Shown here: positions 2,577-25,679 of the stretch, one piece after another
Layout: each line of letters starts with the position of its first letter
How positions within the stretch are numbered: position 1 is the first letter of the stretch
Assembly: GCA_964636085.1 (NCBI GenBank)
Contig: CAZWPQ010000016.1
Location: 1 to 26,614 of the forward strand
Direction of reading: 5' to 3'
Length of the DNA: 26,614 nt
From: an uncultured Nitrososphaerota archaeon
Lineage (GTDB): Archaea > Asgardarchaeota > Njordarchaeia > Njordarchaeales > Panguiarchaeaceae
The notes under the pieces: model-generated
Database searches by the model: none
What the model was told of the DNA's origin: nothing
What the model saw: the letters and a program-made list of their open reading frames with translations, nothing else
Program-made: the position numbers and the translations under genes

Positions 2577-4262
2577 TCATATCATCTCCCATGTTTGTGG
2601 CTTTTCGGTGAATATATGTTTCTCTGTCAATGTTAGCGCAATTTTAGGTAACTCGTCAGGATCTGGTATGCTTATGATGTATCCTCCACCCGACCTTACC
2701 CTTTCTAACACACCATATTTTGCTGGAAGCTCTATATGGAAAAAGTATACGGTATGATGTCTTGATAATTCTTCTAGAAATTCCCCAGCACTTTTTCTGT
2801 TATAGATTGCTGCATCACTTATCACAATTATCAACACATTTTTTCTATCACCAATAACTCTCCTTATGGTCTTTATCGGAAAGTATGTTCCTCCATTCTG
2901 GTGGATCATTAGGACATCCTCTATTAATCTCTTATTCATTCCAAACCTAGCAACGATGGGTCTGTCGGAGAAATTTATGGCTGCAACATCACACCCAATG
3001 TCCAGTGCATACTCTAATATTCCAAAAGACGTGAGAAGGGCCACGTCGAATTTGGAGCCGATGACATAGGTAATATTCAGCTTCTTCATCAGTTTCTTCA
3101 TTCCCCTAGAAATACGAGGTTGTCTATATCCGTGTAGTTTTCCCATCGATCCAGAAGAATCTATTATGATAAGAACATCTGGCGTATATCTAATCACCCT
3201 TAGGGGAACACTCTCCCCTTTTATCCACTTTTTCGTCGTGTATCCAGGTATCATTATTGGGGAAATGTTTGATGACATGTATACGTCCAATTTCTCTATA
3301 CTGTCCCCCAACTCCCAAGTGTCTGGGTAATCAATTTTTTGGCGCACCACCTTCCTCCTCTCCTTTATAGTTATCCTAATTATTTCTCTGGCCCTTTCCC
3401 GATACCATAAGCGCATTATTTCCTTTGGCTTCATGGGGATCGTGCTCAGTAGGAATGGGGCCGATGTGGAGAGTTCACCACCCATCACCCCATAAATCGT
3501 ACTGAAAGCTTCGGGGAGGACCTTGCGTCTGGGCGTCTGTACCGCCATTACGGGTATGAATTCCTCGAGAATATCATATCCCGTCGTTTTGCCTAGCTTT
3601 TCTGCCTCACTTCCTAGATCAATCTCTCCAAATTTCTTTGAGAGGTATTCGGCTACATCTCTTGCTATTATGGGCCATACATATGGGTCATTTACATTCC
3701 TGGTGAATATTATGTTATACAAATCTTCTGCCATTTCGGCTATCTGTTTGTCCTCTATTGGGAATACATCTTGTCCATACATCTTGTTTATCAAACATAG
3801 ATGAAGCAAAGATGTTTTCCCAATCTCTTTGCCAAAGAGCTTCTTGATTATTCTATATGCCTCTATCACCAAATCTGGATCCTTATGTAGCAAATTTGCA
3901 TCGTTTATTATTTCGATCAATAGCGCGGACGTTATAATGCCGACCGCATATTCGCCATACTTCATGGATTGTTTTATAATCTCCACAGCCGTTCTTACAT
4001 CGTAGGGACAGAATCTTCGATAGCTTAGAAGCTTCGAAATGTAGTATGTCAAAATGACCTCCAACTCTTTTGACGATAGGTATAAAAACCTGCCCACGAT
4101 TATTTTGAAGCGTTGTGTCTCCCTATCTATGCTGATCTTTAATTTTGGCAGAATCCTCATTTCTAGGTCTATCTTTGGTGGTTCTTGCAGCATGAAGTAT
4201 GAGGCCGCCCTGTTTAATGCCTTTTCGATTATACGTTTTACCTTGCCCTTGGTCAGTATCAC
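2577..4262 (-). CDS. vWA (MIDAS) domain protein, partner of MoxR AAA+ ATPase
   Basis: C-terminal vWA: VLIIIDSSGSMG (DxSxS), AAINFS, GGT, IIVISD. Long helical N-terminal region. Starts 9 nt after the MoxR stop. Confidence 0.9.
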   Translation of the reverse strand: MILTKGKVKRIIEKALNRAASYFMLQEPPKIDLEMRILPKLKISIDRETQRFKIIVGRFLYLSSKELEVILTYYISKLLSYRRFCPYDVRTAVEIIKQSMKYGEYAVGIITSALLIEIINDANLLHKDPDLVIEAYRIIKKLFGKEIGKTSLLHLCLINKMYGQDVFPIEDKQIAEMAEDLYNIIFTRNVNDPYVWPIIARDVAEYLSKKFGEIDLGSEAEKLGKTTGYDILEEFIPVMAVQTPRRKVLPEAFSTIYGVMGGELSTSAPFLLSTIPMKPKEIMRLWYRERAREIIRITIKERRKVVRQKIDYPDTWELGDSIEKLDVYMSSNISPIMIPGYTTKKWIKGESVPLRVIRYTPDVLIIIDSSGSMGKLHGYRQPRISRGMKKLMKKLNITYVIGSKFDVALLTSFGILEYALDIGCDVAAINFSDRPIVARFGMNKRLIEDVLMIHQNGGTYFPIKTIRRVIGDRKNVLIIVISDAAIYNRKSAGEFLEELSRHHTVYFFHIELPAKYGVLERVRSGGGYIISIPDPDELPKIALTLTEKHIFTEKPQTWEMI

Positions 4263-4271
4263 TACGCTTCC

Positions 4272-5930
4272 CTATGACAAGATTTTCTTCATGGATTCTA
4301 CCATGTCGTCCCATAGAGAATATATAACCACATGGACGGGGCTATCATCCTTCTCGCATATTGAATATATCTCCATGTAGCTCAGATCGACATATGCAGA
4401 GATAGATTTTGGTGGTTTTAGAGTATGCCTTATTTCATTTATCCCGGTGTATTTGACTACATCGTCGATCCTATTCTTCCACTCTTTATATGTTACTGTT
4501 AGTCTTGTTCTGTGTTTGAGGAGTTCTGAGTGGTATACTTGTTTTAGTGTATTGTATTGATGAATAGATAACCTAGATTTTGCCTCCTCTAGAATCCTTC
4601 TAATTGTGTCCTTATCCGCAATCTTAATTGCTTCCATGAGTTGCCTCGCATACGTTACATATCTTTCTTCGAGCAATTCATCTATTTTTGGTAGCACGTC
4701 ATATTTAATAATCAGATCGTTAACCGCTGCATTTTTTATCGCAGTAACCATATTGGGGTCGACCTCTCCTCTCTTGATATTCTCATAGGCCTTCATTAAT
4801 GGTAGCCTTTGGAGGAAATTCCTTAGGACAACATTGACAATCTCCTTTGTTAACTCGAATTTATTATAGTGGAACCTCTCTAAGTATTTCTCAGAAAACT
4901 TTAGTCGATGCCACAGTACGTATGGGGCTATTGTTACAACAATATCCAGCGATACTTCGTCGAGACCAAGAAGCCAGGCTAGTGCTTTTGAATACCTTAT
5001 GAGATCCTTCTGTGCCCTTATGCTTAGGGGCGTATATACAATCTTACAAACAGTATCGAGGTTCTCATAATGACAACCAGTACATATTTTGCTGCCTATA
5101 GCCATGAATATCCCGGTCTCCTTGTTCACTCTATCACATAGCGATAATTCCTTCACCAAAACGCTAGTGAATAATCTGGCATCCTCACTCACCGGTATTG
5201 TTTCAACATAACTCCATATCGTTATCAACTCATCAATGGTGAGTATCGAGGGCACAGTCCTCTTAGCAACTTTTTCATCTGGAATATCGGCGATTTCTAT
5301 CACATCTTCAAGAGGCGGTGACTCAACTATCACAGCAATACCAAATCTATCCAACATTGGGAGCCCCATTGGAAACGTACCCACGTCACGGGGGTTTAGA
5401 GTTGCATATAGGACATACCTTGGTACAAAGTATATTTTATCAAAATATTTAGCTATTCCCTCTCCAAGCAGGCTAAGAATCGCATCTTGGGCACCAGGCG
5501 ATAATCTGTTAATCTCGTCTATAATTTTCCAGAAACATTTCACGAATCTTCTCCATATGATCATCTCCTCTCCTTCGCTTATTAGTTTTCCTAGGTGCAG
5601 TCTAGCAACAATTTTCTCCTCAGTAAGTTGTGGATTTGAACGAAGAATACTGGCTTCTATTTCCTCCATAGGTTGGCTAGTAAGTATTTTTCCAAGATAC
5701 TTCAGAAACATCGTTTTTCCATATCCGTACCCCCCATATAGTATCATTGAACCATTACCAACAATAGCATTGATTATTGAGAACCCTGTTACGACGGGGA
5801 ATGCGAATGATCCATTTGGCGTATTAATCACTATTGTTTTGGTATGTATAAATAGCTTGTTTTTTTGCAATATATCCATCGCAGCTAGGACTTTTTCTCT
5901 CAATAGATCCTCATTTTTCACTTCGCTCAA
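4272..5930 (-). CDS. MoxR-family AAA+ ATPase
   Basis: Walker A GGYGYGKT, Walker B IIDEINR followed by QDAILSLL, sensor-1 ATLNP, LDRF arginine finger, SIRA sensor-2. Confidence 0.9.
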   Translation of the reverse strand: MSEVKNEDLLREKVLAAMDILQKNKLFIHTKTIVINTPNGSFAFPVVTGFSIINAIVGNGSMILYGGYGYGKTMFLKYLGKILTSQPMEEIEASILRSNPQLTEEKIVARLHLGKLISEGEEMIIWRRFVKCFWKIIDEINRLSPGAQDAILSLLGEGIAKYFDKIYFVPRYVLYATLNPRDVGTFPMGLPMLDRFGIAVIVESPPLEDVIEIADIPDEKVAKRTVPSILTIDELITIWSYVETIPVSEDARLFTSVLVKELSLCDRVNKETGIFMAIGSKICTGCHYENLDTVCKIVYTPLSIRAQKDLIRYSKALAWLLGLDEVSLDIVVTIAPYVLWHRLKFSEKYLERFHYNKFELTKEIVNVVLRNFLQRLPLMKAYENIKRGEVDPNMVTAIKNAAVNDLIIKYDVLPKIDELLEERYVTYARQLMEAIKIADKDTIRRILEEAKSRLSIHQYNTLKQVYHSELLKHRTRLTVTYKEWKNRIDDVVKYTGINEIRHTLKPPKSISAYVDLSYMEIYSICEKDDSPVHVVIYSLWDDMVESMKKILS

Positions 5931-7248
5931 TGTCCAGCACCCCCAAATATGTCAACGTTTTTAAATCCATATACCTTCTCCAATTTGGCATATTCTTTTC
6001 TAATTTTTTTACATCAATATGTATTTCTGACTCTACAGATAATCTCTTAGCTACTTCATATGGGATGTATGCCTTGATGAGCCGATTAAATGCTTGGAAA
6101 ATTAGGGTAGATGGATAATTGGTCAATATCTCGATTATCCTTCTTCTAGTACCATCCATTTCTAGGAATCTTCTAATCACTACTGGTCTTGCCTCCGACG
6201 CGATCTTATCCATTATCTTGAAAACATACGTGTCTATGTTTGGTTCTTTTCCCCAATGTTTGTTCAGCATTTTATAGACAAACTCTAGAATCTCTTGTAG
6301 ATTTGCCATACTGCTAGTGGTATATGACGTCGACAATAACAAAGCTACCGCGCTTTTTGTTGATGTTATACCCTTCGTTACTGCGTATATCAAGCTGGAA
6401 ACAGGGCCCCTATAGTATTTTGAAATCATCTTTGATAGTATATCAAATATGAGGCTAGGATCATTTTTCCTAGCCTTCTGATATAGCTGAAGCGCCTCTT
6501 GGTCGGTATAGTCGAGAGTTTTAAGCAAAATGTTCCATGTAAAGTATCGAACCCCCTTTAATCCTAAATATCTCATGAGGGCATAGCCAGCCGCGATACA
6601 AAAACCATATGTGGCGTCAAAATTCCTCGATATAGAGTTCACTACAACATCAAATATTTTTGTGTTTGTACCGACACAATAAAATAGTGGAATTGACGCA
6701 ACAATGCTCTTCTCGGTAGACAGTTTTTCTCCCATACTTTTAAAACTCTTGGAGTACTCCTCTGCAAAATTTGGGAGCTCAAAGGCTCCAAACTTTTCTA
6801 GGAGCAACGTATATATATCCCCAATAGCGATGGCTTCATTATATTTGGCCAATTCTCCAGTAAAACTTATTTCTACACTTTTGGAGATTCCGTACTCCTT
6901 AGCGAACTTTAGTATCACATTTTTCGTCAACATGAGAGGTAATCTCGGGTTGAAGACTTCATGTATCACATATGCTACTTGAGTCCCCATTATACTTATG
7001 ATCTCGGGTGAAATCGGGCTACCATATGCCATAAGCCTCATTCTTAGTGTCTGCTTTAGTTTTGCGATATATGCGCCCCCACAATATTTCTCTAATACCT
7101 CAAATACACGGTCTATGTGATGGTCATACGGCTCTAAAAATCCTGCATATTCAACTATTTTTTCACAGATTTCCCTCCTACTTCTCTTCTCCATTAAAGC
7201 GTCCACATTCGCTAGAATCGCGTCTAGATTCTCAATATATTTGGACAT
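5911..7248 (-). CDS. Hypothetical protein (445 aa, helical), first gene of the MoxR-vWA operon
   Basis: Long ORF with GAGGGA SD upstream. Its 3' end overlaps the MoxR start by 20 nt. Confidence 0.75.
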   Translation of the reverse strand: MSKYIENLDAILANVDALMEKRSRREICEKIVEYAGFLEPYDHHIDRVFEVLEKYCGGAYIAKLKQTLRMRLMAYGSPISPEIISIMGTQVAYVIHEVFNPRLPLMLTKNVILKFAKEYGISKSVEISFTGELAKYNEAIAIGDIYTLLLEKFGAFELPNFAEEYSKSFKSMGEKLSTEKSIVASIPLFYCVGTNTKIFDVVVNSISRNFDATYGFCIAAGYALMRYLGLKGVRYFTWNILLKTLDYTDQEALQLYQKARKNDPSLIFDILSKMISKYYRGPVSSLIYAVTKGITSTKSAVALLLSTSYTTSSMANLQEILEFVYKMLNKHWGKEPNIDTYVFKIMDKIASEARPVVIRRFLEMDGTRRRIIEILTNYPSTLIFQAFNRLIKAYIPYEVAKRLSVESEIHIDVKKLEKNMPNWRRYMDLKTLTYLGVLDIERSEK

Positions 7249-10284: not shown

Positions 10285-11418
10285 ATGGAATTTGATCCAA
10301 TTCTCCTAGCGAAACGTCACCTAGAGTTAATAGACCAGTATAGGGAAACACTCAATGCAAAATCCAAAAGACGCGCTGAGAAAGATTCCCATAGATTCAG
10401 AATCCCACGACACTGCGGACTAACCGTACATTTTGCCCGCGGGGGATGTCCGTATCAGTGCTCTTATTGCTATATTTATGATATGGATCTGGGAAAAAAT
10501 ATCGAACCATACCCACTCTCTCCCAGAGAGCTTGTTTATGCTATTTTACTTAACAGAAATTTTATCTCTGGCAGATTTGGTACTCTACTAGCTATCGGAT
10601 CCATAACGGAGCCCCTCATTTTTGAGAAACACGCACTTGAATACTTCTACGAATTAGCAAACCTCGGAAACCCTATCCAATTCTCAACCAAGAAATTTAT
10701 CACAAGTTCTTTTGCTTTAGAACTTTCAAGAGTCCCTACCCCCGTTTCCCCTCTTGTATCGATTATAACCTTTGAGCTCAGCGATATCCTTGAACCTTAT
10801 GCACCTAAACCAGATTTGAGGTTGGAATCCATTAGGAATCTTAGCAATGCAGGATTAAACGCTTGTCTCTTTCTCAGACCCATAATTGTTGGAATTAATT
10901 ATCGTGAAGCATATAAAATCATGGATGTTGCTAGAGAATATGGTGCTAGGTGCGTTGTCTTCGGCTCATTCAGAATAACATATCGTATATACAAAACACT
11001 TAAAGATCTCGGATTGGATATGAGTAAAGTCGAGGCGAGAGCGAATATAAAACTTATTAAAAAATTCCCTAAGAGACAGTATCCAGTATCACTTTCACGG
11101 CGTGAGAAGGACAGACTAATAGCATATGCAAGGAAGATTGGGCTTATTCCTTTCAAGTCTGCATGTTGTGCAAACTCATTCAACGCTGGTGTTGTATGTC
11201 CATCCATATGTTTTGAGACATCATTCTGTACTAATTGTCCTAATAACTGTAGAACACAGACAAGACCCAGTATTAATTCCTTGACCGAGGCACTTAGATT
11301 ACTTAATATTCATATAAGGCTACATTTACACAATGAAAAGATCTTCATCGATAAAAAAAATTATCTAAAGTTGGTGCAGACTCTGTCTAGAAGGATTACC
11401 CTGCCTCGTAGGCCTTAA
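10285..11418 (+). CDS. Radical SAM protein (SPL/photolyase-like archaeal group) with Cys-rich C-terminus
   Basis: CPYQCSYC (CxxxCxxC), GSITEP, QFSTK, LEPYAP..RL, FLRPII. C-terminal CC..CxxxC..CxxCxxxC. Confidence 0.9.
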   Translation: MEFDPILLAKRHLELIDQYRETLNAKSKRRAEKDSHRFRIPRHCGLTVHFARGGCPYQCSYCYIYDMDLGKNIEPYPLSPRELVYAILLNRNFISGRFGTLLAIGSITEPLIFEKHALEYFYELANLGNPIQFSTKKFITSSFALELSRVPTPVSPLVSIITFELSDILEPYAPKPDLRLESIRNLSNAGLNACLFLRPIIVGINYREAYKIMDVAREYGARCVVFGSFRITYRIYKTLKDLGLDMSKVEARANIKLIKKFPKRQYPVSLSRREKDRLIAYARKIGLIPFKSACCANSFNAGVVCPSICFETSFCTNCPNNCRTQTRPSINSLTEALRLLNIHIRLHLHNEKIFIDKKNYLKLVQTLSRRITLPRRP

Positions 11419-13129
11419 ATAATGCCTTCTTAATTAGATCCAACAAGTCTTCTCTCGTTCCAACTAGGCCAGCTTCTATGGGTACTTGTAGTGCTTTTAC
11501 TTCATCTGGAACATTCTCATCACACCATATAACAAAGTCTACTTTACTTACTATACGAATCAAATTCAGTGCTGACTTTATTATGTCTTGCGTGAACGCA
11601 CCAATAATTAAGAAGCCTTTTGTTTTTTCCTTTATTTCTCTTTGAAGAGATCTAGGTATACCCTTAACAGCTCCTTGGATTGTTAAATTATACTTAGTAG
11701 ACCCAATACTTATGGGCACAATCCACCTAAATGGTTTCGATTTATCCTTGTACGGAGCTAGAATCTCCGTCAGTTTTCTCAGATCGCCAAGAGCTGTCAT
11801 ATATACATCTACCTCTTTTATTTCCTCAACCTTCGGTACTTCTGGTGGCACTAACTCTACCTCCTCTGGTTTAGGTAACTCGGGAATAGCCTCGGGGGGC
11901 GCTGGTATCTGGGGAATTTCCTTTACGCCCACTTTAACCTCCATCGTTTCTTCTGGCTTTGCTATTGAAGGAATTTTTGCCTCTTTGGGGGTCGGGGGAA
12001 CCTCTGGAATTGGGACTGAAGGCGGAGGCATAATCTTTTCTGGTGCTTTTTCTTCCTTAGGAGGTTTCGGAGCCTCTATTTTGGGTCTTGGAGGTGGAGG
12101 TGGAGGCACCCTAGCAGCTTTTTCCTCCACTCTTACCAAGTATTTCTTCAGCACGACTTCGTCTAGTTTAAGGCCAATAAAACTAAGGGCATTCTTAAAA
12201 GTATCGATCATTTCACTTGGAAACCTTGCCCCAACGAAAGCTGAGGGCGGTCCAGATACTACGGATGGTCTTTTCGATATACCCTCAATAGCCTTATTTA
12301 GACTATCCACCGTACCAGCTAGCTTATCTAAAATATCCCTAATCTCTTTAACCTCAGAATCTAATGCAGTAATCTTATCCGATAACTTAGACAATGATCC
12401 AGAAAGATCCCCAATCTGCTCAAGTTTTTCACTAATTATATCACTTATTATCTTCTCTATAGCCTCCTTATCCAAGGCAAAAGATACAGGAGATTGTACT
12501 GCTATAGGTTTCGCTGTTGTGGGAGGCGCTTCAGGAGGGGCAGCTATCTGGGAAGATGGAGGTGTAGGTGCAGGTTGAGGTGTAGGTTGTGGGGGGGTTA
12601 TCTGCTCAGGCGCTGGCTGTGGGGCTGGTGCAGGGGCTGGTGTAGGCGCGGGCGCGGGCTGAGGGGCAGGTTGAGGAGGAGCCATTGTTGGTAGTGTGCC
12701 TCCTTTTATTCTTATTATGTCCTCGACATCCTTTATTAGTTTATTTAAATGCATTGATTGAGGAGCCTGAGAGGCTATCTGATTTAGGGCCTCCAAAACT
12801 CTTTCGGTTGGTGCATCATACGCAACCGATTTTATGTCTTCTCTTACCCTATATTTCGTAATCGCCATGTTGAATGCTTTAATGGCGACTTCTTTGAATT
12901 TTGGATCGCTTAACATTTGTATACATTGCTCATATGCCTGCTGAAAATTGTCTGGTAGCTGGACCTTTACTTGCCTCATTATTTGTTTGGCCAATAATTC
13001 TGTTCTCTCTGCGAATCCCCATGCTATTATCCATGCCATCAGTATGTCGGCAGGGTTTCTATCCATCCTGCTAAGTTCCTGCAGTATTATATGAGAATAT
13101 TTACCTATATTCTCTGGCAAAGCTAACAC
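11396..13129 (-). CDS. Proline-rich, coiled-coil multi-domain protein (577 aa)
   Basis: Order: helical N-domain, PQPAP/PAPAP linker, heptad coiled coil, second Pro/Glu-rich linker, globular alpha/beta C-domain. Start is GTG 13129 or TTG 13120 (AGGTG SD). Confidence 0.85.
   Translation of the reverse strand: MLALPENIGKYSHIILQELSRMDRNPADILMAWIIAWGFAERTELLAKQIMRQVKVQLPDNFQQAYEQCIQMLSDPKFKEVAIKAFNMAITKYRVREDIKSVAYDAPTERVLEALNQIASQAPQSMHLNKLIKDVEDIIRIKGGTLPTMAPPQPAPQPAPAPTPAPAPAPQPAPEQITPPQPTPQPAPTPPSSQIAAPPEAPPTTAKPIAVQSPVSFALDKEAIEKIISDIISEKLEQIGDLSGSLSKLSDKITALDSEVKEIRDILDKLAGTVDSLNKAIEGISKRPSVVSGPPSAFVGARFPSEMIDTFKNALSFIGLKLDEVVLKKYLVRVEEKAARVPPPPPPRPKIEAPKPPKEEKAPEKIMPPPSVPIPEVPPTPKEAKIPSIAKPEETMEVKVGVKEIPQIPAPPEAIPELPKPEEVELVPPEVPKVEEIKEVDVYMTALGDLRKLTEILAPYKDKSKPFRWIVPISIGSTKYNLTIQGAVKGIPRSLQREIKEKTKGFLIIGAFTQDIIKSALNLIRIVSKVDFVIWCDENVPDEVKALQVPIEAGLVGTREDLLDLIKKALFKAYEAG
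12520..12685 (-). repeat. Low-complexity coding repeat (PQPAP/PAPAP/PTPQP)
   Basis: Locally GC-rich imperfect repeats encoding MAPPQPAPQPAPAPTPAPAPAPQPAPEQITPPQPTPQPAPTPP. Confidence 0.85.
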
Positions 13130-16449: not shown

Positions 16450-18003
16450 ATGTCATATAAGGAAATAGATCCCTTAAAGGTGTCCCAGCAAATCGAAGCA
16501 ATTGCGAAGGAAGCATATAATCAACTTCGGCCCTTCTTCGAGCCTAAATCCGTTGCTATCGTAGGGGCTTCCCGCGATCCTTGGAGCGTCGGATGGGTCA
16601 TCTTTAAAAATTTTGTGGAGAATGCAGAAAAGGGAAAACTAAAAGCTAAAGTGTATGGGGTTAATATAAAAGGAGGCGAACTGTTTGGTAGAAGTCTTTA
16701 TAAATCTGTTATGGACATACCAGAAGATGTAGAACATGCCGTCATTGTCGTTCCTGCCAAATATGTCCCTAGCGTAGTAGATGAGTGCGGTAAAAAAGGA
16801 GTTAAAGTATTAACAATAATCTCTGCAGGCTTCTCGGAGATCGGTAATGTGGATTTAGAAAATGAAGTTGTTAACACTGCCAAGAAGTACGGAATGCGGA
16901 TCATCGGCCCAAATGGCCTTGGTGTTTTCGACAATTATAGCGGCGTGGATACACAATTTGTCCCCGAACTTAAGGATTACGGTGGCAACATGCTATTGGC
17001 GACACCACGGCCTAAACCAGGGAATATATTATTTGGAAGCCAATCAGGTGCCCTAGGAATAGCAATACTCGATGCGCTATATGGTGCAAATATTGGCATA
17101 GCAAAATTCATTAGCTATGGAAATAAGGTGGATGTAGACGAGACAGATATGCTTCTATGGGCATACAAGGATCCAAAGATTGATGTAATAATGCTTTATA
17201 TAGAGGGAATTAAACATGCTGGTCGCCATTTTGTAGAAATTGGAAAAGAAGTAAGCAAGAGGAAACCCATAGTCGTTCTAAAAGGCGGTAGAACCGAGGC
17301 GGGAGCAAGAGCAGCGGCTTCTCACACCGGTTCCTTGGCGGGGGATTATCGTATGTATGAAGCAGCATTTAAGAAAATGGGTGCCATAGTATGTGAGACA
17401 TTGGACGAGTTTATAGATACTGTTAAGGCCTTCTCCATGCAACCACCCGCCAGAGGATACCGACTAACAATCATAACCGATGGAGGCGGGGCAGGCCTCT
17501 TGGCGACAGATGCTGCAGAAAGATATGGATTAGAGGTGAATCCTCCCAGCGATTCCCTTATGGATAGACTCAAAAAAGGGATAGAGGAGGAAAAACTTGT
17601 TCCATTTTCGACTTTCAGTAATCCCATAGATGTAACAGGTTCCGCTACTGACGATAGCTTTGTCTATACCCTTGACGCGGTTCTAAAAGATGATGCCACT
17701 GATTGCATCATGATTATAGGTCTTCATCATGTACCTGGCGTTACTGATAAGCTTCCAGATAAATTACTAGAAACGATCAAATCATCTAGGTTATATAAAC
17801 CAGTAGTTTTCTGTGATGTAGGCGGGGCAGAGTATGCGATTAAATTTAGAGACAAGTTCGAGAGAGCAGGCATTCCTGCGTATCCAACCCCTGAGAGAGC
17901 TGCTGCTGTACTTAAAAAACTCGCGGATTATGGAGTGTGGCTCCAACAGCATGGTGTATTTGACGATTTTCTTAATATGTGGATATCTAAACATCAGTCA
18001 TAA
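16450..18003 (+). CDS. acdA: ADP-forming acetate/acyl-CoA synthetase, alpha subunit
   Basis: FFEPKSVAIVGAS, IISAGFSE, RIIGPNGLG, SQSGALG, SYGNKVDV, phospho-His motif AASHTGSLAG, NPIDVTG, YPTPERAA. GGTGAG SD. Confidence 0.93.
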   Translation: MSYKEIDPLKVSQQIEAIAKEAYNQLRPFFEPKSVAIVGASRDPWSVGWVIFKNFVENAEKGKLKAKVYGVNIKGGELFGRSLYKSVMDIPEDVEHAVIVVPAKYVPSVVDECGKKGVKVLTIISAGFSEIGNVDLENEVVNTAKKYGMRIIGPNGLGVFDNYSGVDTQFVPELKDYGGNMLLATPRPKPGNILFGSQSGALGIAILDALYGANIGIAKFISYGNKVDVDETDMLLWAYKDPKIDVIMLYIEGIKHAGRHFVEIGKEVSKRKPIVVLKGGRTEAGARAAASHTGSLAGDYRMYEAAFKKMGAIVCETLDEFIDTVKAFSMQPPARGYRLTIITDGGGAGLLATDAAERYGLEVNPPSDSLMDRLKKGIEEEKLVPFSTFSNPIDVTGSATDDSFVYTLDAVLKDDATDCIMIIGLHHVPGVTDKLPDKLLETIKSSRLYKPVVFCDVGGAEYAIKFRDKFERAGIPAYPTPERAAAVLKKLADYGVWLQQHGVFDDFLNMWISKHQS

Positions 18004-18080: not shown

Positions 18081-18088
18081 TTTATAAA
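18081..18088 (+). promoter_or_regulatory. Putative TATA box for the ATP-grasp operon
   Basis: TTTATAAA about 40 nt upstream of ATG 18129. Confidence 0.5.
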
Positions 18089-18128
18089 TATATCTTGTAT
18101 CATAAGTTTTGATTATGAGTTTGATAAT

Positions 18129-19343
18129 ATGACTATGAGGGGCATTCAAAAGACCCTAAAACATTTGGACAATGTACTTCACTACCCATTTGCTGGCTTA
18201 GATTTCCTACTGGACGAGGATCTTAATCTAGTATTCATTGAAGCTAACTCTGTGCCAGGTGGGCTCTATGTTATGAATTGCACAAATAGACTTCTATGCG
18301 ACTTAGCTCCACAATTACGGTATTATTTACCAGGTATAGACTTTATTGAAGTTTTTGTGGATATGTGTATTTGTTATTATGAATATATTCGTGGCCGAAG
18401 ACCACGTAGGGTCGTGGTTACATCTCCAGTTAATCGGCCACCTCTTCTCATGCCAGAGCGTGCTTCTATAGCTTCCTGCTTCAGAAGACGTGGTATAGAT
18501 TGTATTATAAGTGATAGATCTAAGTATTTTGTGAAATCTAATATGTTGCATGTACGGCTAGGGTCTTTGATCTATACTCCCGATATGATCATTAGGAGAA
18601 ATACTGGGTTTCCAAAGGGACTAAGACAAATCGTTATTAATACCTCGGAGACGGGTCTAATAACGGGTAGTAAGTTTAGGACATATCGTTTTGTCAAGAG
18701 ATACTTGGACTCTATGCCTCAGTATAAGGATATTTTTAGAATGCCACTTACCCATTATGCAAAGAGAGTGAGAAACATTAGAACTATCGCAGAAGATATG
18801 CTGAGAGAGGGAAAAAAAGTAGTAATAAAACCTAATATTGGGGAAGGGGGAAAGAACATATTTTTTGTAGATTCGTTCCATAGATTGGAGCATGTTCTTA
18901 AAAAGATAGATAGAATGAATATCCGTTCTTTCGTTATTCAAGAGATGATAAATACGTATAAAGTAAGGATCAATAGTGAGCTCTATACGTTTGATATCAG
19001 AGCGTATGGTTTATTGGGAGAATTTATAGGAGGCCATATTCGTCTGGCAGGTCGACCAGTAGGGAGGGGGGCCGTGGAAGACTGGGCAATTAGCAACATA
19101 TCTAGAGGCGGAATGTATTTACCCGTCTTTTTTGATGGCTCCTTAAATATCATTAGGTGGAATAATAAACGAAGGATTGTCTATCCCTTTAGACATATTA
19201 TTGTGGATAATCATGCGTTGTGTCTAGATAGGAAAATCCTTGAAAAACTTAGATTAGCAGTTAGGATAATCGTGGAAGCAATTAGTGTAGCAACAAATGG
19301 CTATAGGGGAGCTGATTATGAGACCCAAGAGGATTCACTCTAG
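18129..19343 (+). CDS. Circularly permuted ATP-grasp amidoligase (TTL/YheCD/RimK-like motifs)
   Basis: The normally C-terminal motif FAGLDFLLDEDLNLVFIEANSVPG lies at residues 21-44. It is followed by PDMIIRR, VIKPNIGEGGKNI, FVIQEMI, FDIRAY and ISNISRGG. Confidence 0.85.
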   Translation: MTMRGIQKTLKHLDNVLHYPFAGLDFLLDEDLNLVFIEANSVPGGLYVMNCTNRLLCDLAPQLRYYLPGIDFIEVFVDMCICYYEYIRGRRPRRVVVTSPVNRPPLLMPERASIASCFRRRGIDCIISDRSKYFVKSNMLHVRLGSLIYTPDMIIRRNTGFPKGLRQIVINTSETGLITGSKFRTYRFVKRYLDSMPQYKDIFRMPLTHYAKRVRNIRTIAEDMLREGKKVVIKPNIGEGGKNIFFVDSFHRLEHVLKKIDRMNIRSFVIQEMINTYKVRINSELYTFDIRAYGLLGEFIGGHIRLAGRPVGRGAVEDWAISNISRGGMYLPVFFDGSLNIIRWNNKRRIVYPFRHIIVDNHALCLDRKILEKLRLAVRIIVEAISVATNGYRGADYETQEDSL

Positions 19344-20283
19344 TTGGACACTGATGATCCACATATTGAAGCTATACAAGGACATAAATCATCTGTTACA
19401 AGTACTAAACACAACTGATGGTGTCGAGATAAAACATGTACTTAGAAGAATTATTGGAAGATTGAAAATACTTAACACATTGGGAAGCGATGTCTGCTGG
19501 TATTTTCTGACTTTTCTACCACTGGATATTCTCATTTCTAGTAATGATAAATTTGAGAAAACACGAATTCTTAAACGGGGACTGTTGTTGCTTAGAAATT
19601 CCATAGAAAAAATGATTGTAGGGAGGGCAAGCCATAGATTCCTTAGGAGAAAAGGGATGTATATAAATCTTAGAAACCCTATGACATCACTATGTGTCCC
19701 ATCCAGATTCGAGGATTTTATCCCTGGATATACATATATCCCGGGGAAGAGACCAGTATTACTTACAGCTTCGCATGCCACACCTCCTGGATCCGATATT
19801 AACACAGCAATTCTTTCCAAGAGAATTGCTATGCGTTCTGGTGCACATGCATTGATATCTAAAATCCCCCGACTTTTCATCGACTCCAATAGACTTGTAG
19901 GTAGGATTTTGCCGTTCAGGAGGAAACTAGATGAGCTTCTCGGTTCAAGGCGGATAAAACTTATAATAGACCTACACAGCATGGAAAAGCGTAATAGTAA
20001 CATGGTCGAAATAGGCGTATGGTTTGGTCTTTCTACCACTAGATCCTATATAGAAAGACTAACAAAGATTCTAGACGAATACGACATACCATATGACATT
20101 AGTTACAGATTTTTGGGTGGTGACATTGTTTTCTATCATGCAAATAAACCATTGATAAATGCCATACAACTTGAGATATCTAACTGCGTTAAGGGTAAGG
20201 GTCTTAGACGCCTAAGCAATTGTTTAGTTAATTATATCCGCTCATTGGGTGATATAAATCGCCAAGAGAGATCTGGTAGATAA
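19318..20283 (+). CDS. N-formylglutamate amidohydrolase / gamma-glutamyl-hydrolase-fold Zn peptidase with N-terminal helical extension
   Basis: PVLLTASHA..SDINT, PRLFIDSNR, LIIDLHSM, AIQLEIS. ATG 19318 follows GGGGAG (alternative start 19297). Confidence 0.8.
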   Translation: MRPKRIHSSWTLMIHILKLYKDINHLLQVLNTTDGVEIKHVLRRIIGRLKILNTLGSDVCWYFLTFLPLDILISSNDKFEKTRILKRGLLLLRNSIEKMIVGRASHRFLRRKGMYINLRNPMTSLCVPSRFEDFIPGYTYIPGKRPVLLTASHATPPGSDINTAILSKRIAMRSGAHALISKIPRLFIDSNRLVGRILPFRRKLDELLGSRRIKLIIDLHSMEKRNSNMVEIGVWFGLSTTRSYIERLTKILDEYDIPYDISYRFLGGDIVFYHANKPLINAIQLEISNCVKGKGLRRLSNCLVNYIRSLGDINRQERSGR

Positions 20284-21721
20284 ACTCGTTATAAAGGTTG
20301 GTATAGAGAACGAATTATTTACTCTAAATGAGAAGGGATTTATAATACCTGCATCCAAGATTGTTGTGAAGGAAATCATCAGAGATATTCTCAACAAGGA
20401 GATAGATATAGACAAATTCAAGATGCTTATCTATGGCATCCAGTGGGAGCCCCATCCCGCCCAGCTTGAGATAGTTACCCAACCACTCAACCATATACTC
20501 ATCGAGAAGGCAATAAGACTTGCACGTAGCTACATTGCTAGTGTTGCTATGAGAAGGAAAATAAAGATATATGCAGGAAGCGTACATCCAATACAGTCAT
20601 GCCCATTTCCCATAAATGGTACACATATAAGCGTATCTATATTCCCTAAAAATCGCCGAGGAATGCCCAGAAAATTCCTAACTTACGTGCATAACAACAT
20701 TAGGAGACATATCCCAGAGCTTATAGCATTAACCGCAAACTCACCAATCATAGCTGGAAACTATTCTGGCTATGCGAGTGCAAGACTCGTATATAGTAGA
20801 GTACTAAGGCCCAGCAATTATGCGGTAATAAAGAGGAGTAAAGCAACGATTATACCTAGAGAAAAGAGGGCTCTACTAAAATATGCATTCACTTTTACAG
20901 ATAGGAAAAAATACGAGCATAAAGTCGTTGCTAATGATGTTGGACTTAGGTTTCTAGACGTTACTCCAAGGGGCCCATTTACAAACATAATTGAGGACAG
21001 ATGGGCAAGCCCCCAAGTAAGCCGAGTTGAGACCAGATTTCTTGACAATCCATCCAATGTGGATTATCTCATGGATATAGCCTCTATAATACTTGGTTTA
21101 TCGCTTGAAGCCATAATTATGATGTATAATGGCGAAAAAATTAGTGAACCAAAATACTTGGCCGAGAATAGAAGTAGAGCCATAAAGCATGGAATAAACG
21201 CTATGTTCATACATGATGGGACAGAGATCCCGGCTCGTGAGAGCACCATGGAAATGATTGAACGGGTCTCGGAATATTTAGATTTACTTAACATAAAACT
21301 ACGTACATCCCTAGCCAAAGCGATACCAGAGATAGAATACTATGGGTATCCATCAATAGTATCTGATCATGAAGAAATCATAAAGTACATACTCCAAGGC
21401 AAAAATCTCATGAAGATCGAGTTGCGTGAGTCCCGTTATTTGATCTCAACAAATGGTAAAAAGAAAAGACTTAGAGAGGGCACCACTATTTTTGGCTTGG
21501 TATTTCCGGAATACGACTTTGAGTGGGATGAAGACGAATATAATATCGCGTCTAGGTTTAAGAAAATAGGGATATCATACTGGCTATTATCGCAACATGG
21601 ATATGTGCGACTAAGTCCCGAGGACAAAATCGTATTTGCCACATCACCCATTGGAAGACTCGTTAGATTGTTTAATTATGTATATAAAAACTTATCCACA
21701 GCTTCTTCGGTTAATAATTGA
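20258..21721 (+). CDS. Glutamate-cysteine ligase family 2 (GCS2/YbdK-like) carboxylate-amine ligase
   Basis: KVGIENELF (upstream of the ORF-track start), QLEIVT, GSVHP, NGTHISV, LIALTANSP, YASAR, DVTPR, RVETRFLD, ENRSRAIKHG. Frame is open from ATC 20258, which follows GGTGA. Confidence 0.87.
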   Translation: MAKRDLVDKLVIKVGIENELFTLNEKGFIIPASKIVVKEIIRDILNKEIDIDKFKMLIYGIQWEPHPAQLEIVTQPLNHILIEKAIRLARSYIASVAMRRKIKIYAGSVHPIQSCPFPINGTHISVSIFPKNRRGMPRKFLTYVHNNIRRHIPELIALTANSPIIAGNYSGYASARLVYSRVLRPSNYAVIKRSKATIIPREKRALLKYAFTFTDRKKYEHKVVANDVGLRFLDVTPRGPFTNIIEDRWASPQVSRVETRFLDNPSNVDYLMDIASIILGLSLEAIIMMYNGEKISEPKYLAENRSRAIKHGINAMFIHDGTEIPARESTMEMIERVSEYLDLLNIKLRTSLAKAIPEIEYYGYPSIVSDHEEIIKYILQGKNLMKIELRESRYLISTNGKKKRLREGTTIFGLVFPEYDFEWDEDEYNIASRFKKIGISYWLLSQHGYVRLSPEDKIVFATSPIGRLVRLFNYVYKNLSTASSVNN

Positions 21722-21761
21722 ATAAAATAAAAATTCATTCCACATAAAAATGGGGGGAACA

Positions 21762-22187
21762 ATGCGTATCCTAGATATTGACATTTCCACAGTAGCTATT
21801 GTGGGGGCATCAAGAAATCCAAATAAATGGGGCTACAAAGTATTTAAGATCTTGCTTGAAAAATATCCTGACCTAAAGGCCTATCCGGTGAATCCAAATG
21901 CTGACGCGATATTAGGTGTCAAGGCATTCCCTAACCTAAAATCTCTACCAGAAAAACCTGACATGGTGATAACAGTAGTACCCCCAAAAATCACCGAAAA
22001 AGTCGTCGTCGAAGCTGTCGACCTGGGAGTGAAACTGATATGGATGCAACCTGGCTCTGAGTCCGACAAAGCCATAAGATACGCACAAGACCATGGAGTT
22101 AGGGTTCTACATGGAGTCTGCTTCATCGAGACGTCAAAATCCGAAAACTTTCCAAGATTTAGGGTAGGTTATCTTGGACAACAATAG
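21762..22187 (+). CDS. CoA-binding protein (YccU-like, CoA_binding_2)
   Basis: VAIVGASRNPNKWG, YPVNP, PDMVITVVPP, IWMQPGSES, HGVC. Alternative start at 21750. Confidence 0.92.
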   Translation: MRILDIDISTVAIVGASRNPNKWGYKVFKILLEKYPDLKAYPVNPNADAILGVKAFPNLKSLPEKPDMVITVVPPKITEKVVVEAVDLGVKLIWMQPGSESDKAIRYAQDHGVRVLHGVCFIETSKSENFPRFRVGYLGQQ

Positions 22188-23118
22188 CTCTCTTGTTATC
22201 TACGTAGATGTACAGCCACAAAAAAATAAGTCACTCTCGAACATAGACTTCTTATACACAAGCGAGAAAAAACTCGATGAGACAATAAATCGTGCCTTAT
22301 CCTCAGGCAAATACGGCTCCATTGTGGTCATATATGGGCATTACATTGATACTGACATCATACTCAGACTTATAAAGGAACTAGACAAGAATGACGTTGT
22401 TTATTTGACATCTCCAAAAAAGTTTGGAATTTTATCCAAAGTGATAAACAAGGTTTATAATACTCTAATAAGGCTTTGGTCAAACACACAAACAGATTTT
22501 AATGACATATGCATAGGTGTCTCCTTTAGAACATCATGTATCACAAAAATCCCCCTCAAGATGACGCCGCCCTATCTCCTACATAGCGTACTTGCTCATT
22601 CAAAAAGAGGGGTCAGATTGCTAGCTATACATGCCGATATCCCTAAGATTCGCTTCCCAACATCGAAGTTTATTGGATTCATTAAAAACATTATTAGATT
22701 TGGCAAAATCACGGGAGAGTTCTATCGCTCATTAAAATTCGCAATTGTCGGGATATCAGGGATAATAGTTAACGAGTCAACGCTCTGGCTAATAACCGAA
22801 TACCTACACAAGCACCCCCTTATTTCCTCTATATTTGCTATAGAGTTATCGATTCTATCCAATTTCATATTTAACGATATCTGGACCTTCAGGGATCGCA
22901 GAGAACCTGGGTTTTCACGCACCATTAGTAGATTAGCCAAATACAATGCTATTTCTTGGTCTACGGGAAGCATAAATTGGGTTATTCTCGCAACACTGAA
23001 AGAATTCATGGGGATGTATTATCTAGTAGCCAATCTTTTTGGAATATTTGCTGCGTTTGTGGGAAATCTATTGCTAAGCTCCTTTTGGGCCTGGAAACCA
23101 TACACAAAAAATGTTTAG
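22174..23118 (+). CDS. GtrA-family membrane domain fused to a degenerate GT2 (Dol-P-Man synthase-like) domain
   Basis: C-terminal KFAIVGISGIIVNE...AIELSILSNFIFNDIWTFRD...YYLVANLFGI (GtrA). The N-terminal part follows a GT2 layout but has no DxD motif. Confidence 0.82.
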   Translation: MDNNSSLVIYVDVQPQKNKSLSNIDFLYTSEKKLDETINRALSSGKYGSIVVIYGHYIDTDIILRLIKELDKNDVVYLTSPKKFGILSKVINKVYNTLIRLWSNTQTDFNDICIGVSFRTSCITKIPLKMTPPYLLHSVLAHSKRGVRLLAIHADIPKIRFPTSKFIGFIKNIIRFGKITGEFYRSLKFAIVGISGIIVNESTLWLITEYLHKHPLISSIFAIELSILSNFIFNDIWTFRDRREPGFSRTISRLAKYNAISWSTGSINWVILATLKEFMGMYYLVANLFGIFAAFVGNLLLSSFWAWKPYTKNV

Positions 23119-23392: not shown

Positions 23393-24480
23393 CTATATTC
23401 TACCTATTGTATACTTGTTTAATTTTTCAAGATTTACATAGACTCCTAGGCCGGGACTATCGGATATTACATTGCTTGAGCCAACTAAGCGTATTCCGCT
23501 CGCAATATTATCCGCCAATAATAAATAGCCGTCCAAATCATTATATCCAGCGATAGTGCCAAATTAAGGCCCGCAGATATAGCTATTTGGGTCTCGCTCA
23601 TGCATCCAATTTGACATTGAATACCTGCCGCCTCGCAAAGGTTAGCTATTTTTACTGCATTTCTAATCCCCCCACTCTTCATAAGTTTTATATTAACCAT
23701 GTCTGCTGCTTCTCTTTTGATTATCTCTATAACATCATAGATGGAATGCACGGACTCGTCCGCCATTATTGGGATTTCCGTTTTTCTTCTTACTTCCCTC
23801 ATACCATCTAAATTTCTCCAATGTACTGGTTGTTCACAGAATTCTATCTCTATGGGTTCTAGCATCCTTAGGACGCGGATAGCTTGTTTTACTGTATATC
23901 CTTGATTTGCATCGAGTCTCAATTCGATATCGCTACCGACAGCCCTCCTAATAGCTCTTACCCTCTCGATATCAGCGTGGGGATCTGTACCTATTTTTAT
24001 TTTGAGAATTTCAACTCCTTTTTCTATATACTTGACCGCCTTGTTGACCGCACGATTTGTATCCATAATGCCTATAGTCACAGATGTTCTGAACGAATTT
24101 TTTGATCCACAACCCATCAAACGCCGTAAGGAAACACCATAGCTCTTAGCGACAACATCATGGAGGGCGATATCTATCGCCGCCTTTGCGGCGGGATTTC
24201 CCAGCATAAATTTATCTAAATCATCTAATATCTCGCTGTAGGCCAGGGGGTCGCGACCAATTATAACCTTTCTCAGTCTCGAGATTAGCGCCATCACCGT
24301 CTCTACAGTTTCTCCAGTTATCCTCCTACTTGGAACCCCCTCTCCGTACCCCACTATACCTTCATCCGTCGTTATTTCTAATATAACCCCCTCATGGTAG
24401 ATCGATGAACCCAAGGCTATACGGAATTCTTCTACCAAGGGGATTCTTATGGCATATGCTTTAATATCAACAATTTTCAT
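23393..24480 (-). pseudogene. L-Ala-D/L-Glu (dipeptide) epimerase, enolase superfamily, frameshifted near the 3' end
   Basis: GYGEG, AKAAIDIALHD, LKIKIG, LDANQGY, EQP, MADES, NIKLMKSGG, IGCMSE. The conserved tail DLDGYLLL...PGLGV is in a different frame from about 23540 to the stop at 23393. Confidence 0.8.
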
Positions 24481-24587
24481 TATTTTCCACCAGATACCTA
24501 TTTAACTGTTTTTTATCTTCAATTTTAACATATTATCGATAGAACTATCGTGCTTTACGCAAATACCAACAATGCTTGGTGAATACA

Positions 24588-25181
24588 ATGAGCGAGCCCA
24601 GGAGCCTGGTATCAGTAAAAATTGTACTGATAGGAGACGGAATGGTAGGTAAGACTACTATGGTAAAATCCTTTTTGATGGGAAAGGCTATTGCCGACAC
24701 ATCGTATCGACGTACTATTGGTGCTGATATATTCATAAAGGAGGCAATATACACAATAGAACCTCTAGGAGATCTAAAATTTAAATGGCTTATTTGGGAT
24801 CTTGCTGGACAACCCATCTTTAGGGAGGTTCGAGGTGAATATTATCGAGGCGCCCAAGCAGGCATTGCTGTCTTTGATGTTTCTAGACCAGATACATTTA
24901 AAAATATCCCATACTGGATATCCGAGTTCTTTAAGCATAGTGGAGGGCCAAAACCAATAGTCCTTGTTGGGAATAAGGTCGACTTGAGAGACAAAATCCC
25001 ATGCCTTCCTCCCGAGCAAGGGCAAAATTATGCTGAGCGTCTTTCACAGGCAACGGGTTTACCAGTTTCATATCTAGAGGCTAGCGCATTACATAATATT
25101 AATGTGGAGATTGTATTTGAGAAATTGGCAGAAACCATAATCCGTAGCTATATTAAGAAGAAAAAACAACAACCTGCTTGA
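24588..25181 (+). CDS. Ras-superfamily (Rab-like) small GTPase
   Basis: G1 GDGMVGKT, G2 TIGADI, G3 WDLAGQ, YYRGA, G4 NKVD, G5 EASA. ATG 24588 follows GGTGA. Confidence 0.95.
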   Translation: MSEPRSLVSVKIVLIGDGMVGKTTMVKSFLMGKAIADTSYRRTIGADIFIKEAIYTIEPLGDLKFKWLIWDLAGQPIFREVRGEYYRGAQAGIAVFDVSRPDTFKNIPYWISEFFKHSGGPKPIVLVGNKVDLRDKIPCLPPEQGQNYAERLSQATGLPVSYLEASALHNINVEIVFEKLAETIIRSYIKKKKQQPA

Positions 25182-25226
25182 TCTTATGCTTATGCCTCTT
25201 TTTTAACAAAACCATGGTGATACTAT

Positions 25227-25679
25227 ATGGACGATATATTCTCTGACATCTTTGGGTCGAATCAATTTAACCCGACGAAGATAGCGTTATCACGCACCAC
25301 CCTTAGGAAGCTGAGAAACCTAGGCATACGTAACATCTGCTTTACCGATCATGATGAAGCCGTTGGGCCATACCTAAAATTTTATCTCAATAGGAAGTCC
25401 ATATTTTTTAGACAACTTGAAAATAACCCAGCATTTCTTGCAGATCTATTGATCCTATCTAAAGACATGAAGGAGATCTTACTGAAGGACGAGAGATCAC
25501 TAGTGTTATTCGGATCCCTTGACAAGACAGGTCTTAGACTTATACTTGTAGAAACTACAAAGGAATTTAAGGACTCATCCTTGGCCTTCATTGATAACCT
25601 CGTTGAAAGGCTAAGGGGTAAGGATCTAACATTAGAGGCTATAGAAAATGCGATAGAAGATGTTTTGCAACTGTTGTGA
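25227..25679 (+). CDS. Hypothetical protein, possible longin/uDENN-like domain
   Basis: GGTGA SD. IRNICFTDHDEAVGPYLKFY beta-hairpin with GP motif, then helix, strands and two helices. Confidence 0.6.
   Translation: MDDIFSDIFGSNQFNPTKIALSRTTLRKLRNLGIRNICFTDHDEAVGPYLKFYLNRKSIFFRQLENNPAFLADLLILSKDMKEILLKDERSLVLFGSLDKTGLRLILVETTKEFKDSSLAFIDNLVERLRGKDLTLEAIENAIEDVLQLL

Follow-up and report, generated by a model that had tools for sequence, protein, structure and literature searches.

Circular permutation of ATP-grasp ligases is already known, and the principle is not new. Permuted ATP-grasp enzymes, such as eukaryotic glutathione synthetase (GS), GspS and YgiC/YjfC, are carboxylate-amine ligases that act via an acyl-phosphate. 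The permutation of eukaryotic GS was reportedly described by Polekhina et al. in 1999, and that of GspS and of the CP_ATPgrasp_1 and CP_ATPgrasp_2 families by Iyer et al. in 2009; the latter authors (Iyer, Abhiman, Burroughs and Aravind; Mol Biosyst 5:1636) are also said to have predicted that CP_ATPgrasp_2 proteins are associated with a GCS2-like ligase and an amidohydrolase. A further permuted protein is found in the structural-genomics entry 3k1t from Methylobacillus flagellatus, which we take to belong to the T. ferrooxidans-type GshA family (Pfam PF08886 / TIGR02049); its title, "putative gamma-glutamylcysteine synthetase", does not demonstrate a function. Here we analyzed a gene for a circularly permuted ATP-grasp ligase in a 26,614-nucleotide (nt) stretch of DNA from an uncultured Asgard archaeon of the order Njordarchaeales (contig CAZWPQ010000016.1, positions 1 to 26,614), referred to below as the window. 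The source assembly (GCA_964636085.1) has 2.41 Mb in 102 contigs and is 83% complete. Judging from sequence, it is rather probable that the gene product is a catalytically intact carboxylate-amine ligase, which arose from RimK/LysX/YheCD-type stock by a separate permutation and works in a three-gene pathway with an FGase-like hydrolase and a GCS2-type ligase.

Permuted order of the catalytic motifs

An earlier note on this DNA had placed the metal-binding G-x-D...E-x-N-x-x-P strand pair, normally the last in ATP-grasp folds, at residues 21-44 of the ligase. Every motif that it listed was found where it had been placed: G23-L-D25 ... E38-A-N40-S-V-P43, with the Mg-binding strands at residues 23-40, IKPNIGEGGKNI at 233-244, VIQE at 269-272, FDIRAY at 288-293 and NISRGG at 323-328. 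The order along the chain was Mg strands first, followed by the ATP-binding Lys, the QE hinge, the DxR motif, NISRGG and a terminal helix. Comparison of 29 family members, down to 21% identity, revealed that D25, E38, N40, R157, K182, K234, Q271, R291, R305, G327 and G328 were invariant, and the residues that define the ATP-grasp superfamily (K234, Q271-E272, D25, E38 and N40) were invariant or nearly so; multiple ATP-grasp Pfam models matched the family above their cut-offs. The invariance of D25, E38 and N40 at this distance indicated that the permuted order is neither a chance occurrence nor a gene-calling artefact.

The placement of Pfam profiles showed the same order. In the window protein, positions 146-168 of the 188-position RimK profile were placed on residues 21-44, and the central parts of the YheCD, ATP-grasp_3, TTL and GSH-S_ATP profiles on residues 180-296. 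In homologues, residues 5-70 took the C-terminal parts of YheCD (202-236 of 255), TTL (226-260 of 292), Dala_Dala_lig_C (154-176 of 204) and ATP-grasp_3 (135-155 of 160). The classical collinear order, with the Mg strands last, was not observed in the ligase, since the C-terminal parts of the YheCD, TTL and RimK profiles fell on residues 5-70 and their central parts on 170-330. Similarly, the 29-member family profile matched solved TTL as two segments in inverted order: profile positions 10-80 lay on TTL 308-384 (independent E value 3.6e-4), and the central domain matched TTL 144-237 separately from this N-terminal piece. The G-x-D...E-x-N pattern was seen in 42 database relatives and lay within the first 60 residues of 41 of these, the sole exception (P0044) being an ordinary ATPgrasp_ST protein, and all full-length homologues begin a few residues ahead of the G-x-D motif. 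Together, the profile placements, the invariant residues and the N-terminal position in 41 of 42 relatives indicated that the permuted order is a family trait rather than the result of a mis-called start. When the permutation was reversed in silico by moving residues 1-91 of the alignment behind residue 395, hhalign produced a single collinear alignment over E. coli RimK 18-292.

Structural model of the ligase

An AlphaFold2 model was built on a 9-sequence alignment (predicted local distance difference test, pLDDT, 85.1; predicted template modelling score, pTM, 0.87), and fold searches were performed with Foldseek and VIA-align. The model shows the three-domain ATP-grasp fold, with strands at residues 21-29 and 34-40, helices at 46-88, an alpha/beta N-domain at 94-170, the ATP-binding domain at 173-280, strands at 284-335, a beta-rich insert at 340-366 and a helix at 368-394. 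The hairpin of residues 21-40 corresponds to the last two core strands of classical ATP-grasps (aligned to TTL 308-340 and RimK 241-292), and the helices that follow it correspond to the classical C-terminal tail helices, along which the family profile runs to TTL residue 384. The pre-ATP-grasp domain contains the conserved residues E110-R111, R156-R157 and F161-P-K163..Q167..N171; classical ATP-grasps align their own residue 1 with model residue ~90-93. Residues 173-328 hold K182, K234 (of IKP), the Gly-rich lid at 238-244, Q271-E272, D289/R291, R305 and N323..G327-G328. The beta-rich insert is present in the ~400-amino-acid (aa) forms of the family and missing from the ~300-aa forms, in which NxSLGG leads directly to the final helix. 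The proposal of the earlier note that the protein ends in a helix after NISRGG thus held for the terminal helix itself, but a beta-rich stretch (~336-366) comes between the two. This helix is the equivalent of the one preceding the Mg strands in classical enzymes, and the new C-terminus lies just behind it. A second model, of a ~300-aa relative (pLDDT 93), showed the same three-way alignment pattern.

The order of these segments implies that the folded protein would be an ordinary ATP-grasp with relocated chain ends. The chain starts with two strands bearing the Mg-binding Asp and Glu-x-Asn, continues through the former C-terminal helices, the substrate N-domain and the ATP-binding domain, and ends with the helix that lies ahead of the Mg strands in classical enzymes. 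In the superposition on 3n6x, 297 of the 325 in-range residues were aligned at 3.6 A, so that the N-terminal hairpin was almost certainly superposed along with the ATP site; the model would thus place D25, E38 and N40 at that site.

Cut point compared with known permuted enzymes

Both Foldseek and VIA-align ranked permuted enzymes first for the ligase model (Table 1). The classic permuted set compared here consisted of eukaryotic GS (2hgs, 1m0w, 3kaj), GspS and trypanothione synthetase (2io7, 2vpm), YgiC/YjfC (7uka, 7uk6), 3n6x and fungal Cp1B (9cjn). Alignments with known permuted enzymes started at model residue ~10, but those with classical ATP-grasps only at ~90. The classical ArgX/LysX, RimK, Ddl, GshB, PurT/PurK and TTLL were aligned only to model ~90-390 and stopped in their own chains just before the final strands, as in 1gsa (E. 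coli GshB), residues 1-266 of which lay on model 92-389. The model and fold searches that the earlier note had proposed for the native sequence therefore bore out a permuted chain, and the re-permuted alignment described above did so at the profile level.

Table 1 Permuted enzymes matched by the ligase model in fold searches
Structure	Score	Model residues	Chain residues
3k1t	19.9 (Foldseek E 6e-16)	8-393	30-423
3n6x (CP_ATPgrasp_1)	18.7	13-337	136-472
GspS (2io7)	17.5	8-334	54-615
YgiC (7uka)	16.4	13-336	90-385
Eukaryotic GS and GS-like	13.5-16.4	12-17 to 336-337	reaches chain end
Cp1B (9cjn)	14.1	13-338	129-502

Analysis of the alignment ends revealed two positions of the termini. GspS, YgiC, eukaryotic GS, trypanothione synthetase, Cp1B and 3n6x all have their C-terminus at a position matching model residue ~336 (~282 in the short form), which for eukaryotic GS, GspS and CP_ATPgrasp_1 means a cut ~55 residues earlier than in the ligase, and the classic permuted enzymes carry 85-160 additional residues ahead of the Mg strands; 3n6x, for example, ends at the equivalent of 337 and has ~135 residues before these strands. 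In agreement with this, the ATP core of the ligase family fell near the ends of the corresponding profiles, at 280-362 of 371 in GSP_synth, 250-325 of 332 in CP_ATPgrasp_1 and 282-357 of 374 in CP_ATPgrasp_2. The models and structures of these three families stop near the NxSxGG equivalent, which puts their cut ~25-55 residues earlier than that of the ligase. In the ligase family the cut comes later, within the loop that connects the helix to the first Mg strand, and 3k1t alone was collinear with the ligase to both chain ends. This protein has the same fold and the same position of the termini, but only 14-15% identity; in a weak PF08886 match, the K-P motif fell on profile positions 250-287 of 402, which agrees with the ligase layout. 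By these superpositions, the ligase family and 3k1t form a second class of ATP-grasp cut point.

The structural ranking is a point for an alternative origin, in which the ligase would be a strongly diverged branch of the known permuted clade (GspS/YgiC, eukaryotic GS, CP_ATPgrasp_1/2 and T. ferrooxidans-type GshA), all descended from one ancient permutation, and its gene module would be homologous to the CP_ATPgrasp_2 neighbourhood. The top structural matches are all permuted, and 3k1t is collinear over its full length; the earlier cut of CP_ATPgrasp_1/2 and GSP_synth argues against common descent with these families. We consider this origin somewhat unlikely, and the sequence comparisons below bear on it further.

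Sequence affinity of the ligase family

The earlier note had read the motifs as resembling TTL and YheCD more than glutathionylspermidine synthase, and the profile searches agreed. Among the 29 members, Pfam matches were obtained with YheCD and ATPgrasp_ST (29 each), TTL (27), ATP-grasp_3 (26), GSH-S_ATP (23) and RimK (18), and weakly with GSP_synth, CP_ATPgrasp_1 and CP_ATPgrasp_2 (two each) and GshA (one). The window protein scored above the gathering cut-off, with partial profile cover, for YheCD (PF14398; 32.3 versus 26.8 bits) and TTL (PF03133; 25.1 versus 20.1 bits), and below it for RimK (PF08443; 14.8 versus 21 bits). A search of PDB sequences with the single window protein gave chance matches only. 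The family profile matched TTLL7 (E 9.5e-11), LysX (4.3e-10), 3n6x (5.4e-6, a similarity at the superfamily level) and human GS (0.09), and 3k1t was not among its matches at E<=10. Probabilities in hhalign were 96.7% for E. coli RimK (central domain on RimK 20-229), 96.0-97.4% for two RimK-like neighbours and 84.7% for GshB, compared with 15.6% for YgiC, 1.6% for YjfC and 1.4% for Gss. Superposition of the core gave a root-mean-square deviation of 2.3-2.5 A with 18-21% identity for classical LysX/ArgX, whereas the permuted enzymes gave 3.5-4.2 A with 10-18%.

Searches for membership in the known permuted families yielded no match above cut-off. The window protein had no match at E<=1 to CP_ATPgrasp_1 (PF04174), to which its relatives reached E 0.031, below the cut-off. 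For CP_ATPgrasp_2 (PF14403) there was likewise no match of the window protein, and the best of those of the two relatives (P0018; E 0.021, 14.2 bits versus a cut-off of 32) covered only profile 282-357 of 374; PF14403 proteins were not found in 301 sampled Asgard genomes. PF03738 (GspS, YgiC, YjfC) did not match the window protein, and the best-scoring relative of that protein (E 7.4e-5, 22.5 bits versus a cut-off of 29.3) was matched in the ATP core only. For eukaryotic GS (PF03917), the window protein reached E 0.054, below the cut-off. PF08886 / TIGR02049 gave no window-protein match at E<=1 in Pfam and NCBIfam and matched one of the 29 relatives at E 0.033; PF08886 had no match in the source genome or in E. 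coli K-12. The ligases thus form a small family covered by no curated model.

A single ancient permutation would be consistent with a weak collinear profile match of the whole protein to 3n6x (E 5.4e-6, profile 15-153 on chain 143-277) and with the collinear alignment of YgiC over 269 columns, but the latter had the low probability given above and the N-terminal part alone reached just E 0.026 against 3n6x. The Pfam CP models matched two of the 29 members at most, at E 0.02-0.03 and over the generic ATP-binding core only, whereas similarity to classical RimK, LysX, YheCD and TTL was much stronger; the absence of PF14403 proteins from the sampled Asgard genomes also speaks against this origin. 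By sequence, the ligase family is clearly closer to these classical enzymes than to permuted YgiC, YjfC and GspS. The classical RimK, LysX-ArgX, GshB, YheCD, ATPgrasp_ST and TTL are its nearest relatives in both sequence and core geometry and share all catalytic motifs; they differ in segment order, so that only ~220 residues are collinear with the ligase and the remainder aligns as a separate piece. The classic permuted enzymes differ from it in cut point and show marginal sequence similarity (hhalign <=16%). The hhalign probability of 96-97% with RimK types, the better superposition of the LysX/ArgX core and the differing cut point therefore favour a permutation separate from that of the eukaryotic GS, GspS and CP_ATPgrasp_1/2 group. 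An independent permutation of a YheCD/TTL-like ancestor, one of the two origins that the earlier note had put forward, is thus favoured rather than proven.

Distribution of the family

Only 52 proteins reached E<=1e-3 in a phmmer search of 1.84 billion representative sequences. Ten of the 301 Asgard genomes sampled carried the ligase gene, from only three genera: the source genome, all four others of its genus, four of seven from a second family in its order and one of four from a third family. The closest public loci belong to Candidatus Njordarchaeota metagenome-assembled genomes (MAGs). The tree separated ~400-aa from ~300-aa forms (Shimodaira-Hasegawa-like approximate likelihood ratio test, SH-aLRT, 97) and placed the query in a 9-member clade, nested in a wider clade with a Baldrarchaeota member. 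Further long forms came from Clostridia (Aminipila, Anaeromicropila and a Firmicutes bin), where they are annotated as "hypothetical" or "ATP-grasp domain-containing". A search for longer fused or tandem forms, such as permutation intermediates or fusions with GCS2 or FGase, found none, which is weak evidence.

Two other database proteins were set apart. P0046 (967 aa), matched in nine stretches, was rejected as low-complexity noise. In P0011, a 291-aa metagenome protein from ENA, the first 111 residues were 88% identical to window-protein residues 139-249, and the part past the IKP motif was a classical ATP-grasp C-terminal half (ATPgrasp_Ter/ATP-grasp_3); by its sequence it is probably a chimeric assembly, possibly a recombinant.

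The locus and its gene neighbourhood

The ligase open reading frame (ORF; Table 2) is open throughout and starts with ATG. It lies immediately downstream of a gene for the alpha subunit of an NDP-forming acyl-CoA synthetase (ACS-alpha; 16450-18003), and the 125-nt gap between the two contains the TATA-like TTTATAAATA, the putative promoter of the ligase gene as read from its sequence and position. The start of the FGase-like gene overlaps the 3' end of the ligase gene; its true start may be the ATG at 19318. In the GCS2 gene, comparison with homologue N-termini showed that the N-terminal motif VGIENEL.T.N.KGFI.PA lies upstream of the first ATG, GTG or TTG (20366). No canonical start codon was found in window 20255-20368 between the TAA stop (20255-20257) and the VGIENE motif, ahead of which the homologues have their start Met by 10-13 residues. 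This sequence suggests either a non-canonical start (ATC at 20258, the first codon past the stop) or a start-codon substitution or sequencing error in the MAG.

Table 2 Features of the ligase locus and parts of the ligase in the window
Feature	Position	Strand	Basis
TATA-like element TTTATAAATA	18081..18090	+	read from sequence; ~40 nt 5' of the ligase ATG
Circularly permuted ATP-grasp ligase ORF (P0001), 404 aa	18129..19343	+	ORF listing, partial Pfam matches in permuted order, conserved family, AlphaFold2 model, fold searches
Residues 21-40, Mg-binding beta-hairpin (D25, E38, N40)	18189..18248	+	model strands 21-29, 34-40, pLDDT ~90
Residues 46-88, helices joining Mg strands to N-domain	18264..18392	+	model secondary structure
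Residues 94-170, pre-ATP-grasp (substrate) domain	18408..18638	+	classical alignment start, conserved columns
Residues 173-328, ATP-binding central domain and first part of C-domain	18645..19112	+	Pfam YheCD/TTL/ATP-grasp_3/GSH-S_ATP, invariant columns, hhalign
Residues 340-366, beta-rich insert	19146..19226	+	model strands 340-366
Residues 368-394, terminal helix	19230..19310	+	classical alignments reach model residue 386-390
FGase-like (PF05013) amidohydrolase	19297..20283	+	Pfam E 1e-8, 36.1 bits versus cut-off 28.9
GCS2/YbdK-type carboxylate-amine ligase	20258..21721	+	Pfam GCS2 and NCBIfam YbdK-like matches; open frame 487 aa

The ligase, the FGase-like hydrolase and the GCS2 ligase were adjacent in every archaeal locus examined with its flanks, which included all Njord- and Baldrarchaeal loci. 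The order ligase-FGase-GCS2 was found in Njord-type genomes and with a 29%-identity homologue, and FGase-GCS2-ligase in a Baldrarchaeota MAG. The distant Clostridial and short forms lie beside a second ligase, of the RimK type, and the cluster on an Aminipila-like contig contains radical S-adenosylmethionine enzymes, an L-amino-acid-ligase-type ATP-grasp, an amidohydrolase, two arginase-family proteins and a major facilitator superfamily transporter. The recurrence of a second carboxylate-amine ligase as partner would agree with a small peptide or amide being assembled step by step, as glutathione is by GshA and GshB, with a dedicated hydrolase; by this analogy, the conserved gene set points to a pathway in which two ligases make such a compound.

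The CP_ATPgrasp_2 neighbourhood, as described in the Pfam text, resembles this arrangement, which is a point for common descent of the two modules: in both, a permuted ATP-grasp, a GCS2-type ligase and an amide hydrolase are kept together. The ligase, however, is not a PF14403 member and has another cut point, and the hydrolase has the FGase fold in the ligase loci, versus GAT-II, C26 or M20 in the CP_ATPgrasp_2 neighbourhood.

An alternative function, which we regard as quite unlikely, is that of a protein- or peptide-tagging ligase, which in the manner of RimK, TTL or LysX/ArgX would add an amino acid to the C-terminal or side-chain carboxylate of a protein or carrier, the FGase-like enzyme removing the tag. 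No conserved small carrier or obvious target gene was seen beside the three genes in the loci examined, the constant partner is of the GCS2/YbdK type, whose characterised relatives act on small molecules, and the bacterial relatives of the ligase lie in clusters resembling small-molecule peptide pathways. A role as substitute ATP-grasp (beta-like) subunit for ACS-alpha, brought to mind by the adjacency of the two genes in Njord-type loci and by the ATP-grasp nature of ACS beta subunits, was rejected as highly improbable, because the source genome has a gene for a canonical ACS beta (ATP-grasp_5, E 2e-80) at another place, the ligase has no ATP-grasp_5 match and matches amide-ligase families, and ACS-alpha is on the opposite strand in one locus (L007) and missing from the Baldr locus and another (L010), whereas FGase and GCS2 are always there. 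Since this adjacency is confined to Njord-type loci and the canonical ACS beta lies elsewhere, ACS-alpha was not counted in the system.

Several other genes were observed around the ligase and its relatives. On the contig of P0024, a 29%-identical homologue, the permuted ligase gene comes last, behind those of an ATP-binding cassette importer (SBP_bac_1/8, fused permease and ATPase), with an ACS-alpha-like gene 4 kb off; FGase and GCS2 are not present there (locus L026). This context might hint at an imported amine or peptide as substrate. In Njord-type loci an enolase-superfamily (MR_MLE) gene (window 23485-24480, - strand; 63-65% identity) converges on the three-gene set. It lies just downstream of GCS2 in two of these loci (L004 and L006), a linkage seen only among close relatives; in the window, a CoA_binding_2 gene (21750-22187) and a gene for a GtrA-like membrane protein (22174-23118) lie between the two.

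The window DNA is archaeal. It also encodes a class I lysyl-tRNA synthetase, an archaeal threonyl-tRNA synthetase editing domain and PaREP1, as well as, at 24576-25679, a Ras/Rab-like small GTPase of 201 aa (Pfam Ras E 1e-34) and behind it an ORF of 150 aa without Pfam match, an arrangement typical of Asgard archaea. Large ORFs of 561, 445 and 577 aa without Pfam match are located at 2577-7248 and 11396-13129 (both - strand), in the neighbourhood of an AAA_5/MoxR-like ATPase (4272-5930).

Discussion

The results presented here favour the interpretation of the ligase as a separately permuted enzyme of RimK/LysX/YheCD-type stock. From the chemistry of the superfamily, ATP and two Mg ions would be bound between the central and C-domains, and a substrate carboxylate would be phosphorylated to an acyl-phosphate, which an amine would then attack to give an amide. 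The three-gene set suggests that the ligase would act in series with the GCS2-type ligase to make a small gamma-glutamyl-type peptide or amide, much as glutathione is made, and that the FGase-like hydrolase may trim, deprotect or recycle the ligase product.

Several observations weigh against this interpretation. The best structural match, 3k1t, has identical termini, and one permutation event may have been common to the ligase family and the PF08886/3k1t family. That D25, E38 and N40 lie at the ATP site was deduced from the ranges of superposition and the numbers of aligned residues, not from measured distances. Moreover, the parallel with the PF14403 neighbourhood, for which a GCS2-like ligase and an amidohydrolase are described, could reflect common descent rather than convergence.

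The earlier note had also considered a divergent permuted family relevant to the origin of eukaryotic enzymes. Our comparisons do not support this: the cut point is unlike that of eukaryotic GS, similarity to the latter is negligible (E 0.05-0.09), TTL is no closer than bacterial YheCD or RimK, and in the sampled Asgard genomes the gene was found in only three genera. The ligase family thus has no bearing on the origin of eukaryotic GS or TTL.

A more specific scenario, which we consider rather unlikely, is that a second independent permutation from RimK/LysX-like stock, together with pairing with a gamma-glutamylcysteine synthetase (GCS)-type ligase in Njord- and Baldr-type archaea, led to a glutathione-like gamma-glutamyl peptide or thiol. 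If true, archaea would have arrived by convergence at an equivalent of the eukaryotic GCS and permuted-GS pathway, with a dedicated FGase-fold hydrolase.

With its classical-like sequence and its second class of cut point, the ligase family offers a clean natural example for studying the frequency and the route of permutation in the ATP-grasp fold. The family is strictly paired with a GCS2 ligase and an FGase-like hydrolase, which points to an uncharacterised pathway of three enzymes for a small amide or peptide that is directly testable with recombinant proteins.

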